Virus record (IMG/VR): IMGVR_UViG_3300027631_000014
Coordinates: 1-64,000 of that record
Source: a virus
DNA: 64,000 bases
Reading direction: 5' to 3' (one strand)
Position numbers and translations under genes: made by a program. The notes beneath the pieces are model-generated. The model worked only from the letters and a program-made list of their open reading frames with translations. It was not told the origin of the DNA and made no database searches. This document shows, in pieces, positions 49,067 through 56,424 of this stretch (its first letter is position 1; every line of letters starts with the position of its first letter).

Positions 49067-49549
49067 ATGAGATATATTTCAACTAAATTATTTGACAATT
49101 ACTCAGTAGCAATTAGACAGTGGAAAGCTCAACACTCCCACTGTCAATTGTTACATGGATATGCTTTAAAATTTAAAGTATGGTTTGCATCTAACGAACC
49201 AGATGTAGATAAACAACTTGATGATATGAATTGGATTGTTGATTACGGTGGATTTAAAGATGCTCCTAAAGGTAATGGTTTAAAATCATGGATGGACCAT
49301 ATGTGGGACCACACATTACTAATTCAAAAAGACGATCCGTTTGTAGATGTTTTTGAACAAATGGGACAAATGGGCTTAGCTAAAGTACATTTACTAGATA
49401 AAATGGGAGCCGAAAGTAATGCTAAATTAGTTTACGACCATTTTAATTCAGTATTAGCAAAAACAGATGCTGGTAGATGTAAAGTGATTAAAGTAGAGTG
49501 TTTTGAAAACGATAAAAATTCATCAATTTATGAAGAACATGGACTATAA
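49067..49549 (+). CDS. queD: 6-carboxytetrahydropterin synthase
   Basis: HC--LHGY, LD---W-VDYG, DH, GAE, E---N. Confidence 0.85.
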   Translation: MRYISTKLFDNYSVAIRQWKAQHSHCQLLHGYALKFKVWFASNEPDVDKQLDDMNWIVDYGGFKDAPKGNGLKSWMDHMWDHTLLIQKDDPFVDVFEQMGQMGLAKVHLLDKMGAESNAKLVYDHFNSVLAKTDAGRCKVIKVECFENDKNSSIYEEHGL

Positions 49550-50303
49550 TAAAGTACAACCAATAATTGAAGCATATGTTTGCGTTCAAACAGAAGGATC
49601 AAGAGCAGGACGTCCTCATTTCTTAGTAAGAACAACAGGATGTACTCATAGATGTTATTTTGGTGAAGGCGGTTGGTGCGACAGCTGGTATACTTCAATT
49701 CACCCTGAAAAAGGTACTTGGACATTAAATGCTATTAAAGAACTATTTGAAGCCAATCCTCAAATTAATCATTTAATGATATCAGGTGGTTCTCCTACAA
49801 TGCATCCTGAGTTAGTTGATGAATTAATCAATATAGCTAAGAATATGAGAGGAATGTATGTTACAATAGAGACTGAAGGTTCTCATTTTATTGAAACTAA
49901 CTACAAAATAGATTTAGTATCTTTATCTCCTAAATTTTTAAATTCACAACCTAAACTAGGAACTAAAACACCAGCAGGTAAAGATGTAGATCAGAAAATG
50001 ATTGATCAACATGAAAAATTTAGAAATAAATATGATGTTATTAAGAAAATGCTTGACTATCATTTAGACTATCACTTTAAACCAGTTGTAGACAGAAACG
50101 AACCATTTATTTGGGAACAAATAGAAGCATTTATTAATTTACATAACATTCCAAATGACAAAGTTTGGGTTATGCCAGCAGGAGATACGTTTAATAAGTT
50201 ACAACCAAATTATGCTTATGTAATGGAGGAATGTATTAAACGAGGATATAATTTTACAGGTAGAGCTCATATTGTAGCTTATAACGATTTAAGAGGAGTA
50301 TAA
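49539..50303 (+). CDS. queE: 7-carboxy-7-deazaguanine synthase (radical SAM)
   Basis: Q-EG---G-P--VR--GC---C-x7-CDS, SGG-P, TIET-G, SLSPK; ATG 49539 preferred. Confidence 0.9.
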   Translation: MDYNKVQPIIEAYVCVQTEGSRAGRPHFLVRTTGCTHRCYFGEGGWCDSWYTSIHPEKGTWTLNAIKELFEANPQINHLMISGGSPTMHPELVDELINIAKNMRGMYVTIETEGSHFIETNYKIDLVSLSPKFLNSQPKLGTKTPAGKDVDQKMIDQHEKFRNKYDVIKKMLDYHLDYHFKPVVDRNEPFIWEQIEAFINLHNIPNDKVWVMPAGDTFNKLQPNYAYVMEECIKRGYNFTGRAHIVAYNDLRGV

Positions 50304-50304
50304 T

Positions 50305-50445
50305 ATGCATGAACTATTACACATAATAGGACTTTGCCCAGATAGTTGGGCTTCCCCAAATCTTATTAATATATTTATCTCAAATTATCAAAGTATAATA
50401 AATTTAATAAATAAAGGTTATGAAACAATTAAAAACATTCTTTAA
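50305..50445 (+). CDS. 46-aa ORF (MHELLHIIGLCPDS...)
   Basis: Translated by hand; fills the gap after queE. Confidence 0.4.
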   Translation: MHELLHIIGLCPDSWASPNLINIFISNYQSIINLINKGYETIKNIL

Positions 50446-50824
50446 GTACAAATACTTAAGACGCAAAATACGTTTAAAAAAGTATCTTGATCCACGTGGT
50501 TTAGATGCCAATGAAAAATTAATTAAAAGCGTACTAATAAAAGTAGTATCTAATCAAGAAAACAATGTACTAAATAATTTAGATGCAGTTTATATTCAAA
50601 CTAAAAACAAAGAATATACTATTGTATTATCCAAAAATAGTATTAAAATATCTAACCATCAACTATTTATTGAATCTAAAATTGATGAATATTTTAGAAT
50701 GGAATTAATGGATGTAGTATATTACTACTTAGATAAATTTAAAACAAAAATGGATAGAGAAATATTTCATAACGAAGCAGAAGGACTAAATTTTATGTTA
50801 AATCAATTAAATCAAATAAATTAA
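50420..50824 (+). CDS. Hypothetical protein
   Basis: 134-aa ORF. Confidence 0.65.
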   Translation: MKQLKTFFKYKYLRRKIRLKKYLDPRGLDANEKLIKSVLIKVVSNQENNVLNNLDAVYIQTKNKEYTIVLSKNSIKISNHQLFIESKIDEYFRMELMDVVYYYLDKFKTKMDREIFHNEAEGLNFMLNQLNQIN

Positions 50825-50826
50825 AA

Positions 50827-51459
50827 ATGGAATTACTAAAAAAATCAAATGGGAACATTTCCCGCACCCCAGAACAAATAGAACAAATGATTGATGAAGC
50901 ATCTATTCATTATGGTAATTTTTTAAAAGCAGTAGGTTTTGACTTCACAGCAGATAAACAAACAGAAAACACACCTCGTCGAGTAGCTAAAGCATGGTTA
51001 AAAGATTTAATCATAGGATCAGTATCAAATGAACCAAATATTACTACATTTCCTAACGACGAAAATTATACAGGTTTAGTAATTCAAAGTGGTATTCCTA
51101 TCACTAGTATGTGTGCCCACCACAATTTAGCATTTACAGGATTTGCTACAGTAGCTTATATACCTGGAGAAAAAGTAATAGGATTAAGTAAATTAAATCG
51201 TATTGTAGAATGGTTCTCAAGACGTCCTCAAATGCAAGAATCACTTACTCAACAAGTACATGACTATATTTCAGACAAAATGGAATGTGAATCAGTAGCT
51301 GTAAGTGTAGCTTGTAAACATACATGTTGTTCACATAGAGGTATTAAACATCCATCTACAATGACTACAAATAAATTTAGTGGTGTATTTATGGAACCAA
51401 GTAATATGATTAGAGATGAATTTTTACATGCAATATCTACCAATGGAGCAAAATTCTAA
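50827..51459 (+). CDS. folE: GTP cyclohydrolase I
   Basis: TP-RVAK, SMCAHH, AYIP, GLSKL-R, RRPQ-QE-LT, H-C---RG. Confidence 0.93.
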   Translation: MELLKKSNGNISRTPEQIEQMIDEASIHYGNFLKAVGFDFTADKQTENTPRRVAKAWLKDLIIGSVSNEPNITTFPNDENYTGLVIQSGIPITSMCAHHNLAFTGFATVAYIPGEKVIGLSKLNRIVEWFSRRPQMQESLTQQVHDYISDKMECESVAVSVACKHTCCSHRGIKHPSTMTTNKFSGVFMEPSNMIRDEFLHAISTNGAKF

Positions 51460-51916: not shown

Positions 51917-52228
51917 ATGAAAAAACTACTAATACTTAGTTCAGCACTACTAATAGGTTGTGCGACTATTAAGAAAATAGACACTACAGGATTTCGTTCT
52001 GAACAAAATACTATTTTTTATGAACAAGATACAGTTGCAACTTTAAGTGCAATTGAATATTCCATAGACAATGGTAAGTACGTCAAAGAAATGACTTTTA
52101 AATTGTTGAATATGAAACATGCAGATAAAGTTCAAAATCTACTTTATTTTATTCACAAAAGACATAAAGACTGGGAAATTGAACTTGACTATCCTATCAC
52201 TAACTTTAAAATAAACAAAGGTGAATAA
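51917..52228 (+). CDS. Putative lipoprotein
   Basis: MKK + hydrophobic stretch + LIGC lipobox. Confidence 0.65.
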   Translation: MKKLLILSSALLIGCATIKKIDTTGFRSEQNTIFYEQDTVATLSAIEYSIDNGKYVKEMTFKLLNMKHADKVQNLLYFIHKRHKDWEIELDYPITNFKINKGE

Positions 52229-52562
52229 ATTATTTGCTGGTATTGTGTTTGGAATTATAGCACAAATTATAGTTTTCTTTCAACTACAAGGTCAATTAAA
52301 ATATGATTGGTTTAAGAATAACTATTGGTTAGTTGTCTTAATGGGTATACCCTCTTCTATGTTTTTTATGTATTCTGTGAAGAATTTAGTATTGGCATAC
52401 AACGGAGAAATGTGGCCTTCAAGACTAATTGGATTTTCATTAGGTGCGATTGTGTTTACTTATTTTAGTTGGTCTTTATTTGGAGAGCCATTTACCACTA
52501 AAACTATCATATGTTTAGTATTAGCTCTCTCTATATTAATGGTTCAATTGTTTATGAAATGA
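52221..52562 (+). CDS. Four-TM SMR/DMT-like membrane protein
   Basis: Four hydrophobic segments; LF-EP---K-IICL-L. Confidence 0.55.
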   Translation: MNKLFAGIVFGIIAQIIVFFQLQGQLKYDWFKNNYWLVVLMGIPSSMFFMYSVKNLVLAYNGEMWPSRLIGFSLGAIVFTYFSWSLFGEPFTTKTIICLVLALSILMVQLFMK

Positions 52563-53080
52563 TGAAAGAAGACGAAGATAATTTATGGTGTAACTACAGT
52601 GGAATGCCATCACCTATGTCATATATGAGGTGTGATAAATGTGATGAAGTTACATACGAATGTAAATGTAAAGAAAAAACAAATATGAATAAAGAACAAC
52701 AAGAGCTATTGGATGAGGCTTATAAGAATTATAAAAGAATCACGCATGAAACTAATGAAAAGAATCATTATGGTGAGTATTCCAAATGGGGTGATAACCC
52801 ACTAATCTCAGGGGTTCAGCATTTAACAAAAGATTCATTTATTCAAATGATAAAAATTAATTCTGAGTTCTCTGAAAAGTGGGGATTGAAAATTGATGAA
52901 CGAGAGTTGAGTTTGGAAGAGAGAATGGACTTAATCGATAAAATGCACCTTCGTTCCTATTCTGGTTGGCAAAATTGGAGTGTCGAAGAAATGGAGGATC
53001 GAATGAATAACGATTGGAATATCCCAACCCGACTAATTACAGTAACATATAATAATAAAACAATAGAAAGCTATGAGTAA
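52559..53080 (+). CDS. Free-standing protein homologous to the thyA inserts (core from ATG 52685; Cys-rich 42-aa in-frame leader)
   Basis: YKNY, FI--IK---EF--KWG, RELSLEER and IPTR all match segments of the downstream thyA. Confidence 0.75.
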   Translation: MMKEDEDNLWCNYSGMPSPMSYMRCDKCDEVTYECKCKEKTNMNKEQQELLDEAYKNYKRITHETNEKNHYGEYSKWGDNPLISGVQHLTKDSFIQMIKINSEFSEKWGLKIDERELSLEERMDLIDKMHLRSYSGWQNWSVEEMEDRMNNDWNIPTRLITVTYNNKTIESYE

Positions 53081-53474
53081 AACAATACCTGTAAAATACA
53101 ATGACGAAATTGTTGGATATACAACAGACGAAGGAAAGACAATTCAATTTAATGATAGCGATGCATCAAAAAGGGTGAACGAAATGCTTAGTCAAAAACA
53201 AACGGTATGGGTTTCATCAAGAGCGATTGGTGAAATTAAAAGTGACAACACGGTTGAAGAAAAAGAAAAGATATCATACGATATATCACACTTTGAAAAC
53301 ACAACGATAAAACAATTGAAAGTTATGAATAAAGAACAAGCAAAAGACGCACTAATTGAAGTGCTAATGAATCAAGTAATGGACTTATCAATGATGTCTA
53401 AAATTGAATTAGGTGATGATGTAATCGCTGAAATTAAACGACTAAAAGAAATTATTAATGATCAGACTCATTAA
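53073..53474 (+). CDS. Hypothetical protein, probably a fusion of two cassettes (second ATG 53325, MNKEQ...)
   Basis: Internal copy of the 53055-53081 junction at 53307-53333. Confidence 0.6.
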   Translation: MSKTIPVKYNDEIVGYTTDEGKTIQFNDSDASKRVNEMLSQKQTVWVSSRAIGEIKSDNTVEEKEKISYDISHFENTTIKQLKVMNKEQAKDALIEVLMNQVMDLSMMSKIELGDDVIAEIKRLKEIINDQTH

Positions 53475-53658
53475 AACACAAGAAGAACTTGAAGCATATC
53501 AAAAAGAGGTTCGTAACAGACAGTACGAAACAAATCCTGTGACAGCTGAGTTTGGTGATGGATTTGATAATCTAGAACCTTACAATTTTGATATTGAATA
53601 CATAAAAATAACAAGAGTTGATAATCACGAAATTATAGAACGAGTAAAATATGAATAA
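53458..53658 (+). CDS. Hypothetical protein
   Basis: 66 aa; stop overlaps the next start (ATGAATAA). Confidence 0.6.
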   Translation: MIRLIKTQEELEAYQKEVRNRQYETNPVTAEFGDGFDNLEPYNFDIEYIKITRVDNHEIIERVKYE

Positions 53659-53806
53659 CCTAGATAAACTGACAGTAGATAAAGTGGATAAATTTCTTAA
53701 AGAATTGTCTGAGGCGAATGTCGGTATAAGAAGAAAGTTATTAGCCATGAAAAAATTTTTAGAGAAAGAAACTATATTATTAAATAACAATGAACAAACT
53801 AAATAA
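53651..53806 (+). CDS. 51-aa protein starting MNNLDK, missing from the ORF track
   Basis: Translated by hand; start copies the thyA 5' end. Confidence 0.6.
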   Translation: MNNLDKLTVDKVDKFLKELSEANVGIRRKLLAMKKFLEKETILLNNNEQTK

Positions 53807-54044
53807 AACATACACAGACCCATTTCTAGGAGAAATAGAACTTTTAAAAGTTGGTGAAACATCTATGAACCTTATGGGTGAATCGGTAGTTCATACAATA
53901 TACACAGACAAATTTAATGGACATTACTATATTGATACTTGGACTACAACAGGGGGTGACCCAATTCCAATGAAGATAATACCTAAACGAGTAATAGATA
54001 AAATAATTCAAATAGAAAACGAAAAATTACCAAATGGAAAATAA
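53790..54044 (+). CDS. Hypothetical protein starting MNKLNKTYTD
   Basis: First 31 nt match the thyA start at 27/31. Confidence 0.65.
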   Translation: MNKLNKTYTDPFLGEIELLKVGETSMNLMGESVVHTIYTDKFNGHYYIDTWTTTGGDPIPMKIIPKRVIDKIIQIENEKLPNGK

Positions 54045-54477
54045 ACTAGATAAAGAACTAATAACACTAACAAAAAGTGATGTAATGTTTCTTATAGCAA
54101 GTGCTATGGGTTATGGATGGAATGAAGCATCTTCACATAGAAGTATTGAAGAATGTAATAAACGAAAAGAATTAGAACAAGAAAGATTACTTGAATGGAC
54201 TATACATTTATCTAATGGATTTCTTAAAGAACATACTCATCACAACCCATATGAAATGTATGATGTGAGTAAGGTTGAAAAATTAAAAGAAAAGTATAAC
54301 TTTGAATTGATTGATGATGTAACTCATAGGATTAATGATAAACCTTATTTTGTAGAAAGTTACAATTCTGGTTTAATGCAATTTTTAGAGTCGTACAAAG
54401 ATAAAAAAATGTACATTTATAGTAAATCATTACCACTCAAGCCTTGGGCCACCACTATTAGAGCAATTGTAATTTAA
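54034..54477 (+). CDS. Hypothetical protein starting MENKLDK
   Basis: 147 aa; AATAAACTAGATAAA identical to the thyA 5' end. Confidence 0.65.
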   Translation: MENKLDKELITLTKSDVMFLIASAMGYGWNEASSHRSIEECNKRKELEQERLLEWTIHLSNGFLKEHTHHNPYEMYDVSKVEKLKEKYNFELIDDVTHRINDKPYFVESYNSGLMQFLESYKDKKMYIYSKSLPLKPWATTIRAIVI

Positions 54478-54478
54478 A

Positions 54479-55918
54479 ATGAATAAACTAGATAAACAAT
54501 ACACAGACCTACTCCAAGACATCTTAGATAATGGAGTAACAAAAAGTGACCGTACAGGCACAGGAACGCTATCAGTATTCGGAAGACAGATTCGTCATAA
54601 AATGAGTGATGGGTTTCCTTTACTCACAACTAAAAAGATGGCTTGGAAATCAGTGGTAACTGAATTGTTATGGTTTTTAAGAGGAGATACCAACATCAAA
54701 TACCTTGTAGATAATGGTTGTCATATTTGGGACGGTGATGTGTATAAGAATTACAGAAGTAAAGCCTCTATGAGTAACGATAAAGATTGTTTAGTTAGAC
54801 AAGAAGAAGGTTCGTTGCTTAAAGAAATGAGACTTTTTACACAAGAAGAATTCATCAACAAAATAAAAACAGATGATGAGTTTGCTAATAAGTGGGGTGA
54901 TTTAGGTCCCGTGTATGGGAAGCAATGGAGGAGTTGGGGTGAAAGATATTCATCTTGGGAAAAATTTGAAGGTGGGATTGTTCCTGATGGTGTAGAAATA
55001 AAAAGTTTTGTACACAAAGGATTAATGACAAGAAAAAAAATAAAAGGTATAGACCAAATCGCAAACCTTATCAACGACCTTAAAACAAACCCAGACTCAA
55101 GACGATTAATGGTTTCAGCTTGGAATGTTGGAGAATTGGATTCAATGGTTCTTCCACCATGTCATTATGGATTTCAAGTTTATACAAGAGAGTTGAGTTA
55201 TGAAGAAAGATGTGATGTGTTTCAATTTACTACTGATTTCAACAAGGAAACCAGAGAACACCTTAAAGAATTCAATAATGATATTATGAATGACTATAAC
55301 ACCCCAACACGAGCAATCTCTCTAATGTGGAATCAACGTTCAGTAGATACATTCTTAGGTTTACCATTCAATATAGCATCTTATGGTTTACTATTAGAAA
55401 TCATCGCTAAAGCAGTTAATATGGTTCCTGATGAGCTAATTGGAAATTTAGGTGATGTACACCTTTACAGTAACCATGTTGAACAAGCAAAGGAACAGAT
55501 TGGTAGAGAGCTGAGTTTAGAAGAAGTTAAAAAAATCTATATTGATTGGAGCTTGTTAAAAAGTTCTGGAGGTTATGCTGGTGATATTAAAGCAGATATT
55601 TGTGAATTCACTAATCAGATATTTATTGATGGGTGGAAAAATAATAAAGACCCTTTCACAGGTAAACCTTTAATTGAACTTGAATGTTTTTTATTAAACT
55701 CCATTCACACAAGGCAACCATTCCCATTACCAACATTAAACATCAATGCAGAGTTCTGGCCAACAGAAAATGGTTCATGTGGAGAAGGACCATTAGATGC
55801 TATAGCAATATTTAACGGATTTAAAGATGATAATTTTTGTAAATGTTTATTAGAGGAAGATATACAATTAAGTAATTATGTATCTCATCCAAGCATTAAA
55901 GCACCTTTATCAAATTAG
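54479..55918 (+). CDS. thyA: Thymidylate synthase with multiple in-frame inserts (479 aa)
   Basis: DRTGTGT, FPLLTTKK, ELLWF, GPVYGKQWR, DSRR, LPPCH, QRSVD--LGLPFN, GD-HLY-NH. Confidence 0.96.
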   Translation: MNKLDKQYTDLLQDILDNGVTKSDRTGTGTLSVFGRQIRHKMSDGFPLLTTKKMAWKSVVTELLWFLRGDTNIKYLVDNGCHIWDGDVYKNYRSKASMSNDKDCLVRQEEGSLLKEMRLFTQEEFINKIKTDDEFANKWGDLGPVYGKQWRSWGERYSSWEKFEGGIVPDGVEIKSFVHKGLMTRKKIKGIDQIANLINDLKTNPDSRRLMVSAWNVGELDSMVLPPCHYGFQVYTRELSYEERCDVFQFTTDFNKETREHLKEFNNDIMNDYNTPTRAISLMWNQRSVDTFLGLPFNIASYGLLLEIIAKAVNMVPDELIGNLGDVHLYSNHVEQAKEQIGRELSLEEVKKIYIDWSLLKSSGGYAGDIKADICEFTNQIFIDGWKNNKDPFTGKPLIELECFLLNSIHTRQPFPLPTLNINAEFWPTENGSCGEGPLDAIAIFNGFKDDNFCKCLLEEDIQLSNYVSHPSIKAPLSN

Positions 55919-56424
55919 CGATATTTATTAGTATGATACGATTAATTGATTTATTAAGAGAAGTCGGTGAAGGAACATCCCAAACGTATAAGTGGGAAGA
56001 GTTATCATCTGATAGATGGTTTACAATTGTCAGTTTTACAACTGATTCTGAAACTGAGTATCAAGTTGAGCTAGAGTATTTTAAGAGTAGTTTCCCATTT
56101 GCAACTGGGTTACCTGGAATTGCACTAGAATTTGTAGCTAAACTTAAAGGAGAGGATGAGTTTTCAAACACTGTCGTAACAAATAAAGGAGAGGTGTATA
56201 AGGTAATGGCTACTATAGTTAATATAGTTCAGCAATACTTAAAAGACAATAAGATTATTACATATACACCAGAGAAGAAGGCGGGAGAAGAGTTTGGTAA
56301 GAAGAGAGATAGTTTGTATAAAGCATTTATTACTAAAAAGTTTCCTAATGTGGAGTTTAAACAAGTGGGAGAGGTGATAATAGCAATCTTACCCAATCAT
56401 TAATAAAGCACCTTTATCGAATTA
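55897..56424 (+). repeat. 21-bp direct repeat (55897-55917 and 56404-56424) flanking gene 55933
   Basis: TAAAGCACCTTTATC(A/G)AATTA, 20/21 identical, each followed by ATATTTATTA. Confidence 0.9.
55933..56403 (+). CDS. Leader-bearing hypothetical protein (MIRLIDLLRE...)
   Basis: 156 aa, own late motif at 55921; similar to 43259. Confidence 0.75.
   Translation: MIRLIDLLREVGEGTSQTYKWEELSSDRWFTIVSFTTDSETEYQVELEYFKSSFPFATGLPGIALEFVAKLKGEDEFSNTVVTNKGEVYKVMATIVNIVQQYLKDNKIITYTPEKKAGEEFGKKRDSLYKAFITKKFPNVEFKQVGEVIIAILPNH

Follow-up and report, generated by a model that had tools for sequence, protein, structure and literature searches.

Recombinational variation of cassettes is known from surface antigens and phage tail fibres, for which the selective agent is obvious. 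Rickettsia palindromic elements are selfish sequences inserted in frame into protein genes, and the hyperplastic regions of T4-type phages reportedly harbour mobile regulatory cassettes (PeSL, attributed to Arbiol et al. 2010), in which junction sequences flank small variable genes and appear to mediate their shuffling. The locus described here places a cassette design in an intracellular enzyme of nucleotide synthesis. The stretch of viral DNA that was analysed (64,000 nucleotides (nt), positions 1 to 64,000 of IMG/VR record IMGVR_UViG_3300027631_000014; hereafter the window) carries thyA, encoding an enlarged thymidylate synthase (TS; the phage protein is called ThyA), and upstream of it a small gene that resembles parts of thyA and is referred to as mini-gene, with mini-ThyA as its product. 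Hundreds of such mini-genes hold the variable parts only.

Several components of this arrangement have precedents. The small domain of TS is highly variable between organisms (PMC6479881), T4-like phages contain genes that are split by endonucleases yet functional (PMC2988022), and a T-even homing endonuclease was shown to drive segmental amplification of adjacent genes (PMC13096335). The first variable module of the window's genes, which is this small domain, and the endonuclease-split genes of its relatives are therefore already known. Neither the cassette pool nor the family of mini-genes turned up in full-text literature searches and, as far as was found, swappable cassettes of this kind have not been reported before for a metabolic enzyme. 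The author of a preliminary description of the locus, made from its sequence, had known of no comparable account, which, as far as these searches show, holds for the cassette pool but not for the first module.

The mini-gene and the cassettes of ThyA

A viral contig of 76.8 kb (47% complete) contains the window, and the nearest named relatives of this aquatic phage are the Flavobacterium phages vB_FspM_immuto. The features on which the analysis is based are listed below, with positions in the window.

52559..53080, + strand: probable full coding sequence of mini-ThyA, 173 amino acids (aa), comprising a 42-aa Cys-rich leader and a 131-aa body
52685..53080, + strand: mini-ThyA body, the earlier reading of the gene (P0001), 131 aa, without catalytic core
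52712..52885, + strand: V1 module of the mini-gene, BLASTP E 5e-6 to ThyA 87-140, with 5' border DEAYKNY (52712-52732), core (52733-52828) and 3' border KDSFIQMIKINSEFSEKWG (52829-52885)
52886..53077, + strand: beta strand and V2 module of the mini-gene, BLASTP E 6e-8 to ThyA 230-292, with LKIDE-RELSLEER (52886-52924), core (52925-53017) and NIPTR-LITVTYNNKTIESYE (53018-53077)
53044..53081, + strand: junction to the following gene, whose start overlaps the ..TIESYE stop, repeats D5, D13 and D18
54479..55918, + strand: thyA, 479 aa, PF00303 at 2.4e-90 and 302.7 bits, matches to TS in the PDB down to 8.6e-68
54734..54898, + strand: V1 module of ThyA, residues 86-140, variable core about 54755-54838, small domain of the Lactobacillus casei type
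54947..55045, + strand: additional variable insert of ThyA, residues 157-189, without counterpart in PDB TS and not in the mini-gene
55187..55312, + strand: V2 cassette of ThyA, residues 237-278, RELSYEER-core-TPTR, located in the hairpin between the two central strands
55505..55714, + strand: V3 of ThyA, residues 343-412, again a cassette of V2 type (RELSLEE-core-SIHTR), flanked by EQIGR and QPFPLP
55739..55855, + strand: C-terminal insert of ThyA, residues 421-459, matched by 118 of 122 long ThyAs, conserved and not a cassette

ThyA matched the PF00303 profile across the whole TS fold. Its catalytic Cys228 (in PPCH) and Asn298 (in LPFN), the residue that specifies deoxyuridine monophosphate, were both intact, as the preliminary description had reported for this 479-aa protein. 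Together with the phosphate-binding Arg residues R25 and R208-R209 (DSRR), C228 and N298 were invariant in 97 relatives. In comparison with solved TS structures, ThyA contained extra sequence at residues 87-140, 157-189, 240-280 and 346-459.

Residues 11-67 of the mini-gene's 131-aa reading frame matched ThyA 87-140, and residues 66-130 matched ThyA 230-292, with the E-values given above. When each block was compared with 1000 shuffled sequences, z-scores of 10.3 and 12.4, respectively, were obtained and none of the 1000 shuffles reached the observed score in either block; the previously noted alignments of both modules, including that of RELSLEER with RELSYEER, thus withstood this control. 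At the DNA level, positions 52883-52924 and 55169-55210 were 76% identical over 42 nt (repeat D4), positions 52714-37 and 54736-59 were 79% identical, and the 15-mer GAGAGTTGAGTTTGG was found at 52902, 55188 and 55506. The second block extended into the central beta strands of ThyA (GFQVY, AISLMWNQRSVDTF). Counterparts of ThyA residues 1-85, of residues 141-229, which include the catalytic Cys, and of everything past the second strand were absent, and the inner junction of the mini-gene was located at ..KWG / ..HYG.

Because the match runs into core beta strands, the small gene reads as an internally deleted mini-ThyA, in which the small domain (V1) is followed by the central beta hairpin and the helical insert that it carries (V2). 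Its initial interpretation as a concatenate of ThyA inserts was correct with respect to homology and to the missing catalytic core, but a bare concatenate would not include central strands. Since the catalytic regions are absent, mini-ThyA cannot be an enzyme. No Pfam family at E<=1 and no PHROG match was found for it, and it falls outside the ThyA family (PF00303) as a derived fragment with neither a profile match nor a catalytic core.

The start of the gene had been placed at 52685, but its reading frame is open upstream of that position. ATG 52559 overlaps the stop codon of an open reading frame (ORF) at 52221-52562 as ATGA, and 10 relatives, as well as L025, retain the leader (LWCNYSGMPSPMSYMRCDKCDEV.YECKCKEK) in frame. 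This overlap and the conserved frame argue for ATG 52559 as the probable start, with a product of 173 aa. The 42-aa leader (52559-52684) has the pattern C..CxxC..CxC and may be a small zinc ribbon; only approximately one tenth of the family members have one.

An AlphaFold2 (AF2) model of the mini-protein showed a confident, compact fold (predicted local distance difference test (pLDDT) 82; predicted template modelling score (pTM) 0.70), in which a three-stranded sheet is packed by the border helices and the V1 core is disordered (elements E68-74, H77-86, H100-110, E116-122 and E125-130). Searches of the PDB with Foldseek and a wide structural alignment gave no meaningful match to this model (best E 0.16; best Z 3.9), and a search of the ESM Atlas with the mini-protein yielded no usable match. 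The AF2 model of ThyA, built on a custom alignment, was poor (pLDDT 59.6), and only its secondary structure was used.

ThyA residues 86-156, an insert between helix C and the LGPVYG loop, aligned with residues 86-155 of 3uwl and 90-162 of 4dq1 in the PDB. By these alignments, the first module is the known TS small domain, as present in the Enterococcus, Staphylococcus and Lactobacillus casei enzymes; the resemblance of mini-gene and ThyA in this module had been recognized correctly, but its presentation as a new insert had to be abandoned. The insert at residues 157-189 differs in length among relatives and reaches approximately 110 aa in P0230.

Long ThyAs of the clade (122 proteins of 380-546 aa) showed the same border and core design at V1 and V2 as the mini-genes. 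The proposal of conserved borders around unrelated cores was thus borne out among relatives, in ThyA and free genes alike. Within the window, the resemblance of V3 to the V2 module was weak (E 0.13; z 4.3, with 2 of 1000 shuffles reaching the score), which left the suggested third copy doubtful on this evidence alone. However, among the 104 long ThyAs in which the V3 site (EQIGR to TRE-PFPLP) was scored, 87 carried an R-ELSLEER-core-NIPxR cassette and 15 were empty. This recurrence indicates that the weak third copy is real and that V3 is a regular second ThyA site for a V2-type cassette. The C-terminal insert, which is absent from solved TS structures, contains the near-invariant residues C434, C454 and C456, possibly a metal site.

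The window contains a single mini-gene copy. Its terminal junction has a second, out-of-frame copy at 53296-53333 that continues into ATGAATAAAGAACAA. The next ORF (53073-53474) resembles two cassettes fused in frame, the second half of which begins at an internal MNKEQAKD.., immediately behind this remnant junction (..NDKTIESYE stop, out of frame); the equivalent gene of L003 (3842-4210) begins right at the MNKEQAKD.. point. Copies of the thyA 5' end (MNxLDK..; 54470-54518) open three genes upstream of thyA (53648-53669, 53781-53829 and 54040-54057; 78-94% identity over 18-49 nt). The 3' end of thyA (..KAPLSN stop, 55897-55917) is repeated with 95% identity 507 nt downstream, at 56404-56424, and this repeat pair flanks a 156-aa gene (55933-56403). 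QueE-like and FolE-like genes of the 7-deazaguanine pathway lie directly upstream of the locus (49503-51459), as in the immuto phages.

A pool of cores common to mini-genes and thyA

More than 1175 relatives of the mini-gene were found at 90%-identity clustering. With a profile of 104 relatives, 573 cluster representatives at 50% identity were retrieved (88-221 aa long; 416 with E<=1e-10). No family member had a Pfam or PHROG name, and tblastn with the mini-protein as query found nothing similar in 50,697 deposited phage records. The family layout is MNKEQQELLDEAYxNY, a V1 core of 15-80 aa, EEFINKCKTDTEFSEKWGLKIEERELSxEER, a V2 core of 15-50 aa and then NIPTKLITITYNDKTIESYE. V1 and V2 cores combine freely, one V2 core occurring with different V1 cores and vice versa, and the V1 core type of the window's mini-gene is present in 49 others. 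Approximately one quarter of the members have N-terminal extra domains. In L028 (3402), L032 (4180) and L048 (4824), a conserved 60-aa N-terminal domain (MNKETKFKVGDKAHKPKGYKF..) was observed. Two copies of the V1 3' border, separated by additional sequence (..KCKTEDALSLKW..TEFSxxWG), occur in L038 (5620), L040 (5001) and L052 (4336).

For genomic context, 53 viral contigs with a mini-gene relative were fetched, and the counts below refer to the fetched stretches. At least two mini-gene copies were present in 30 of the 53 loci, with the largest array in L003 (approximately eight copies, counting one end fragment). Wherever both genes occurred, the mini-genes were located upstream of thyA on the same strand (25 of 25 loci), with gaps of 120-2120 nt. 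Array members are linked by a fixed junction in which the ..TIESYE stop overlaps the next MNK.. start. All members of the arrays in L003 and L012 are joined by this ..ESYE*/MNK.. junction, and so are unrelated small genes.

Cores were compared after removal of their borders (ThyA cores against mini-gene cores, E<1e-3). Matches to mini-gene cores were found for 36 of 105 ThyA V1 cores (approximately 60-100% identity among the matches listed) and for 30 of 99 ThyA V2 cores, usually from another contig. Of 87 V3 cores, 15 matched mini-gene V2 cores and 32 matched ThyA V2 cores, compared with one and no matches, respectively, for shuffled V3 cores. Clustering of approximately 240 cores of each kind (V1, V2) gave about 90 types without detectable similarity to each other; 17 V1 and 13 V2 clusters contained cores from both kinds of gene. 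The V1 core of the window's ThyA is 67-71% identical in protein sequence to the V1 cores of mini-genes L042_5001 and L030_5001 (74% identity over 155 nt at the DNA level), its V2 core recurs in P0131 and P0198 (93% identity), and a core 78% identical to its 56-aa V3 core occupies the V2 position in P0237, whose V3 position is empty. The expectation that free genes and thyA have cores in common was thereby confirmed at all three sites.

Direct traces of transfer were found in L009, L010 and L040, which originate from three metagenomes. In each of these, a tract of 117 nt was 100% identical between the contig's own mini-gene and its own thyA; the tract spans one V2 cassette and both of its borders, and there is no similarity beyond it. 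In P0132, V1 is duplicated in tandem. Contigs from four metagenomes break at cassette borders and rejoin across replaced cores, and some swap exactly the ThyA V2 stretch (joints 5519x to 5530x); these contigs show many border-sharing variants, with within-lineage switching not visible from them and stretches without coverage carrying no information. In 16 of 18 loci, the cores of the mini-genes differed from those of their own ThyA, yet matched ThyA cores of other contigs. Shared cores, the 117-nt identical tract and the conserved borders together support exchange of cassettes between thyA and mini-genes by recombination, as the preliminary description had proposed. The purpose that it attached to the exchange, a possible diversification of the ThyA surface against host sensors or nucleases with the free gene as donor, decoy or partner, is a hypothesis.

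Selection was analysed for 68 framework codons in 47 mini-genes. The ratio of nonsynonymous to synonymous substitution rates (dN/dS) was 0.30 and remained below 1 in all 1061 pairs, at a median dS of 0.5-0.6. For the thyA N-terminus (eight loci), dS was 1.29 and dN/dS 0.10, a comparison of synonymous divergence that is rough, as it involves only eight thyA sequences and different pair sets. Within one core type, the corresponding ratio of polymorphisms (pN/pS) was 0.17, alike for V1 and V2, with synonymous differences of up to 0.7; the pairs were picked at an amino-acid identity of >=55%, which biases this ratio downward. Codons of the invariant framework residues F52 and Y122 were used at random expectation, while many other framework codons were far more similar than codon usage predicts. 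A codon-identity profile along thyA was based on only five full-length sequences, which are too few to conclude from.

The purifying selection on framework and cores indicates that the mini-genes encode real proteins, and the low pN/pS within types points to cores that are discrete functional alleles being shuffled rather than products of hypermutation. The framework is constrained as protein and also appears to be kept alike as DNA, as expected of a frequent exchange site. A role of the mini-genes as silent donors alone does not fit the protein-level purifying selection on the free genes.

Explanations for the cassette pool

With moderate confidence, we favour a joint reading in which a shared cassette pool, recombination at borders, endonuclease drive and mini-proteins that act as reservoir and stand-ins are combined. 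Cores are exchanged among mini-genes, with thyA, and between the V2 and V3 sites of ThyA, probably through homologous recombination within borders whose synonymous sites have diverged less than those of the thyA core. Homing endonucleases, found inside V1 in relatives, may drive much of this exchange as well as the expansion of arrays by cutting both DNA strands. Mini-proteins would display the variable lobe of ThyA without the enzyme, and could thus serve as an allele reservoir for thyA and as soluble decoys or competitors for a partner that binds the lobe. A more specific version, in which phage ThyA is subject to an intracellular analogue of antigenic variation, with its lobe recognized by a host sensor, an inhibitor or a rival-phage factor, at least about 100 alleles, and mini-genes as archive and decoys, is considered unlikely.

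The endonuclease component is based on relatives in which thyA is interrupted. In L012, L013, L052, L053 and L055, the interruption lies inside V1. L012 carries a 335-aa ORF (PHROG homing endonucleases, 1.6e-16) between ORFs for the N- and C-terminal parts of ThyA, and L013 contains a different endonuclease type at the same spot (GIY-YIG-like by motifs, with 'HNH endonuclease' as its best PHROG). In L007 (1997-4248), a GIY-YIG ORF splits thyA at residue 221, adjacent to the catalytic loop. At the start of the C-fragment ORF, the V1 3' border (LSKEEFLQKLKTDKEF..) is present as a displaced copy that is joined directly to ..MVLPPCH; this ORF could be an intermediate toward a mini-gene. Rfam searches at the gathering score detected no group I intron in the six loci with interrupted thyA, and the peptides that flank the splits are too short for split inteins. 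By analogy with the amplification described for T-even phages, breaks induced by endonucleases are the likely motor of exchange and array growth.

A number of observations weigh against this joint reading, in addition to the two limits on the selection estimates given above. The window's own thyA is uninterrupted and no GIY-YIG or L012-type endonuclease gene was found in the 76.8-kb contig, so that the endonuclease drive is drawn from relatives. The identical tract and the shared cores fit transfer in either direction between mini-gene and thyA, and P0121, a mini-gene/thyA chimera joined in V1 that resembles a crossover, may be an artefact of assembly. Three mini-genes and no detectable thyA were present in a contig of 216.7 kb (83% complete), and in another contig thyA was located 37 kb from the mini-genes; mini-genes therefore do not require a neighbouring thyA. 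Conversely, the cultured immuto phages encode long ThyAs with V1, V2 and V3, yet no mini-gene was found among the 50,697 deposited records, which indicates that ThyA cassettes can be maintained in genomes that have no reservoir of their own. Mini-genes and ThyA cassettes may thus work independently of each other.

According to a rather unlikely alternative, mini-proteins perform a job unrelated to ThyA, for example in anti-defence or regulation, on a ThyA-derived scaffold, and core sharing is a side effect of the common borders. Purifying selection on framework and cores, the N-terminal extra domains, the occurrence of mini-genes far from or without detectable thyA, and the diverse paralogue arrays, which are typical of phage counter-defence regions, all speak for it. 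However, approximately 85% of the ThyAs of the clade keep two or three cassettes, which argues that cores are selected in the enzyme too, mini-genes were upstream of thyA in every locus that contained both, and no defence or anti-defence match was found in Pfam and PHROGs, the only libraries searched. Improbable, to a clearly greater degree, is an origin of the mini-genes as by-products of endonuclease and recombination traffic near thyA, i.e., partial copies left by break repair that are selfish or nearly neutral and helped by their junctions. Traffic of this type is evident from endonuclease genes inside and beside thyA in relatives, from the displaced border in L007, from a V1 5' half of the split allele without an endonuclease gene in P0226, from the duplicated gene ends and junctions in the window, and from the MNKE.. 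start and ..ESYE stop common to unrelated small genes. Nearly neutral copies are nevertheless difficult to reconcile with the dN/dS and pN/pS values, with invariant F52 and Y122 whose codons are at random expectation, with 416 clusters of stable length without stop codons, and with the compact, confidently predicted fold.

Binding of the mini-protein to ThyA as a poison or regulatory subunit, possibly specific to the alleles of competing phages, is very unlikely. The central ThyA sheet forms the TS dimer interface, and both strands kept by the mini-protein are central strands of that sheet; moreover, mini-gene cores mostly differ from those of their own ThyA and match other contigs' ThyAs. With about 90 core types, such a difference is expected by chance, however, and in L009, L010 and L040 mini-gene and thyA do not differ in their V2 core. 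A complex prediction for ThyA and mini-protein, run without controls, gave a score of 0.00, which weighs neither for nor against binding. Lastly, a decaying thyA pseudogene fragment or a chance similarity, to which the missing catalytic core and Pfam match might have pointed, is refuted by shuffle z-scores of 10-12 and by the purifying selection that acts on hundreds of intact relatives.

Candidate mobile or mutagenic elements were also considered. A MITE-like element (miniature inverted-repeat transposable element) was rejected as the cassette borders have no terminal inverted repeats. For a diversity-generating retroelement, no RVT_1 match, and hence no reverse transcriptase, was found in the 76.8-kb contig (47% complete), and the cores are mutually dissimilar rather than point-mutated copies.

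If the variation is adaptive, something in the infected cell would read the surface of phage ThyA, which would point to a new kind of interaction with the host or with other phages. Should the exchange be driven by homing endonucleases, it would be a clear natural example of selfish nucleases that turn fragments of an essential gene into new genes and diverse proteins. Many 'hypothetical proteins' of aquatic viromes, which form one large family, gain a name, and three ThyA loops that tolerate arbitrary inserts of 20-70 residues would be useful for enzyme engineering.

Comparison with known systems

Like Rickettsia palindromic elements, the cassettes are short in-frame segments tolerated in surface loops, with one kind of element at several sites. 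They differ from these elements in that their borders lack terminal inverted repeats and purifying selection acts on their diverse cores. The conserved junction, in which the ..ESYE stop overlaps an MNK.. start, is reminiscent of the junctions of PeSL cassettes; unlike those, it is coding, and exchange also takes place inside the reading frame, at cassette borders.

In Aeh1 nrdA/mobE and T4 gene 39/60/mobA (PMC2988022), genes are split by free-standing endonucleases. Similarly, an HNH- or GIY-YIG-type gene splits thyA in L012, L013 and L007, and the V1 insertion point in relatives is a surface loop. In contrast, thyA of the window is a single, whole ORF and no endonuclease was found in its contig. 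Split genes of the T4 type explain neither the mini-gene arrays nor the core pool.

The nearest known systems are those of segmental gene conversion from silent cassettes, pilE/pilS of Neisseria and vlsE/vls of Borrelia. With these, the locus shares partial copies, with variable stretches between conserved borders, that are arrayed near the full gene, as well as mosaic alleles that would arise by homologous exchange in the borders. Transfer of segments between partial copy and full gene is represented by the 117-nt tract and the shared cores, in either direction. The carrier here is a virus, however, the full gene encodes an intracellular metabolic enzyme instead of a surface antigen, and exchange probably occurs largely between co-infecting genomes. 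In addition, judging by start codons, stop/start overlaps, dN/dS and pN/pS, the phage copies appear not to be silent.

A known parallel to the V1 cassette is the small domain of the L. casei and Enterococcus faecalis TS (3uwl, 1lca; PMC6479881), with which ThyA residues 87-140 and the first module of the mini-gene align and whose length and structure vary between organisms. In the phages, by contrast, the variation is allelic within one clade, comprising about 90 core types between fixed borders, and the domain exists outside the enzyme as well.

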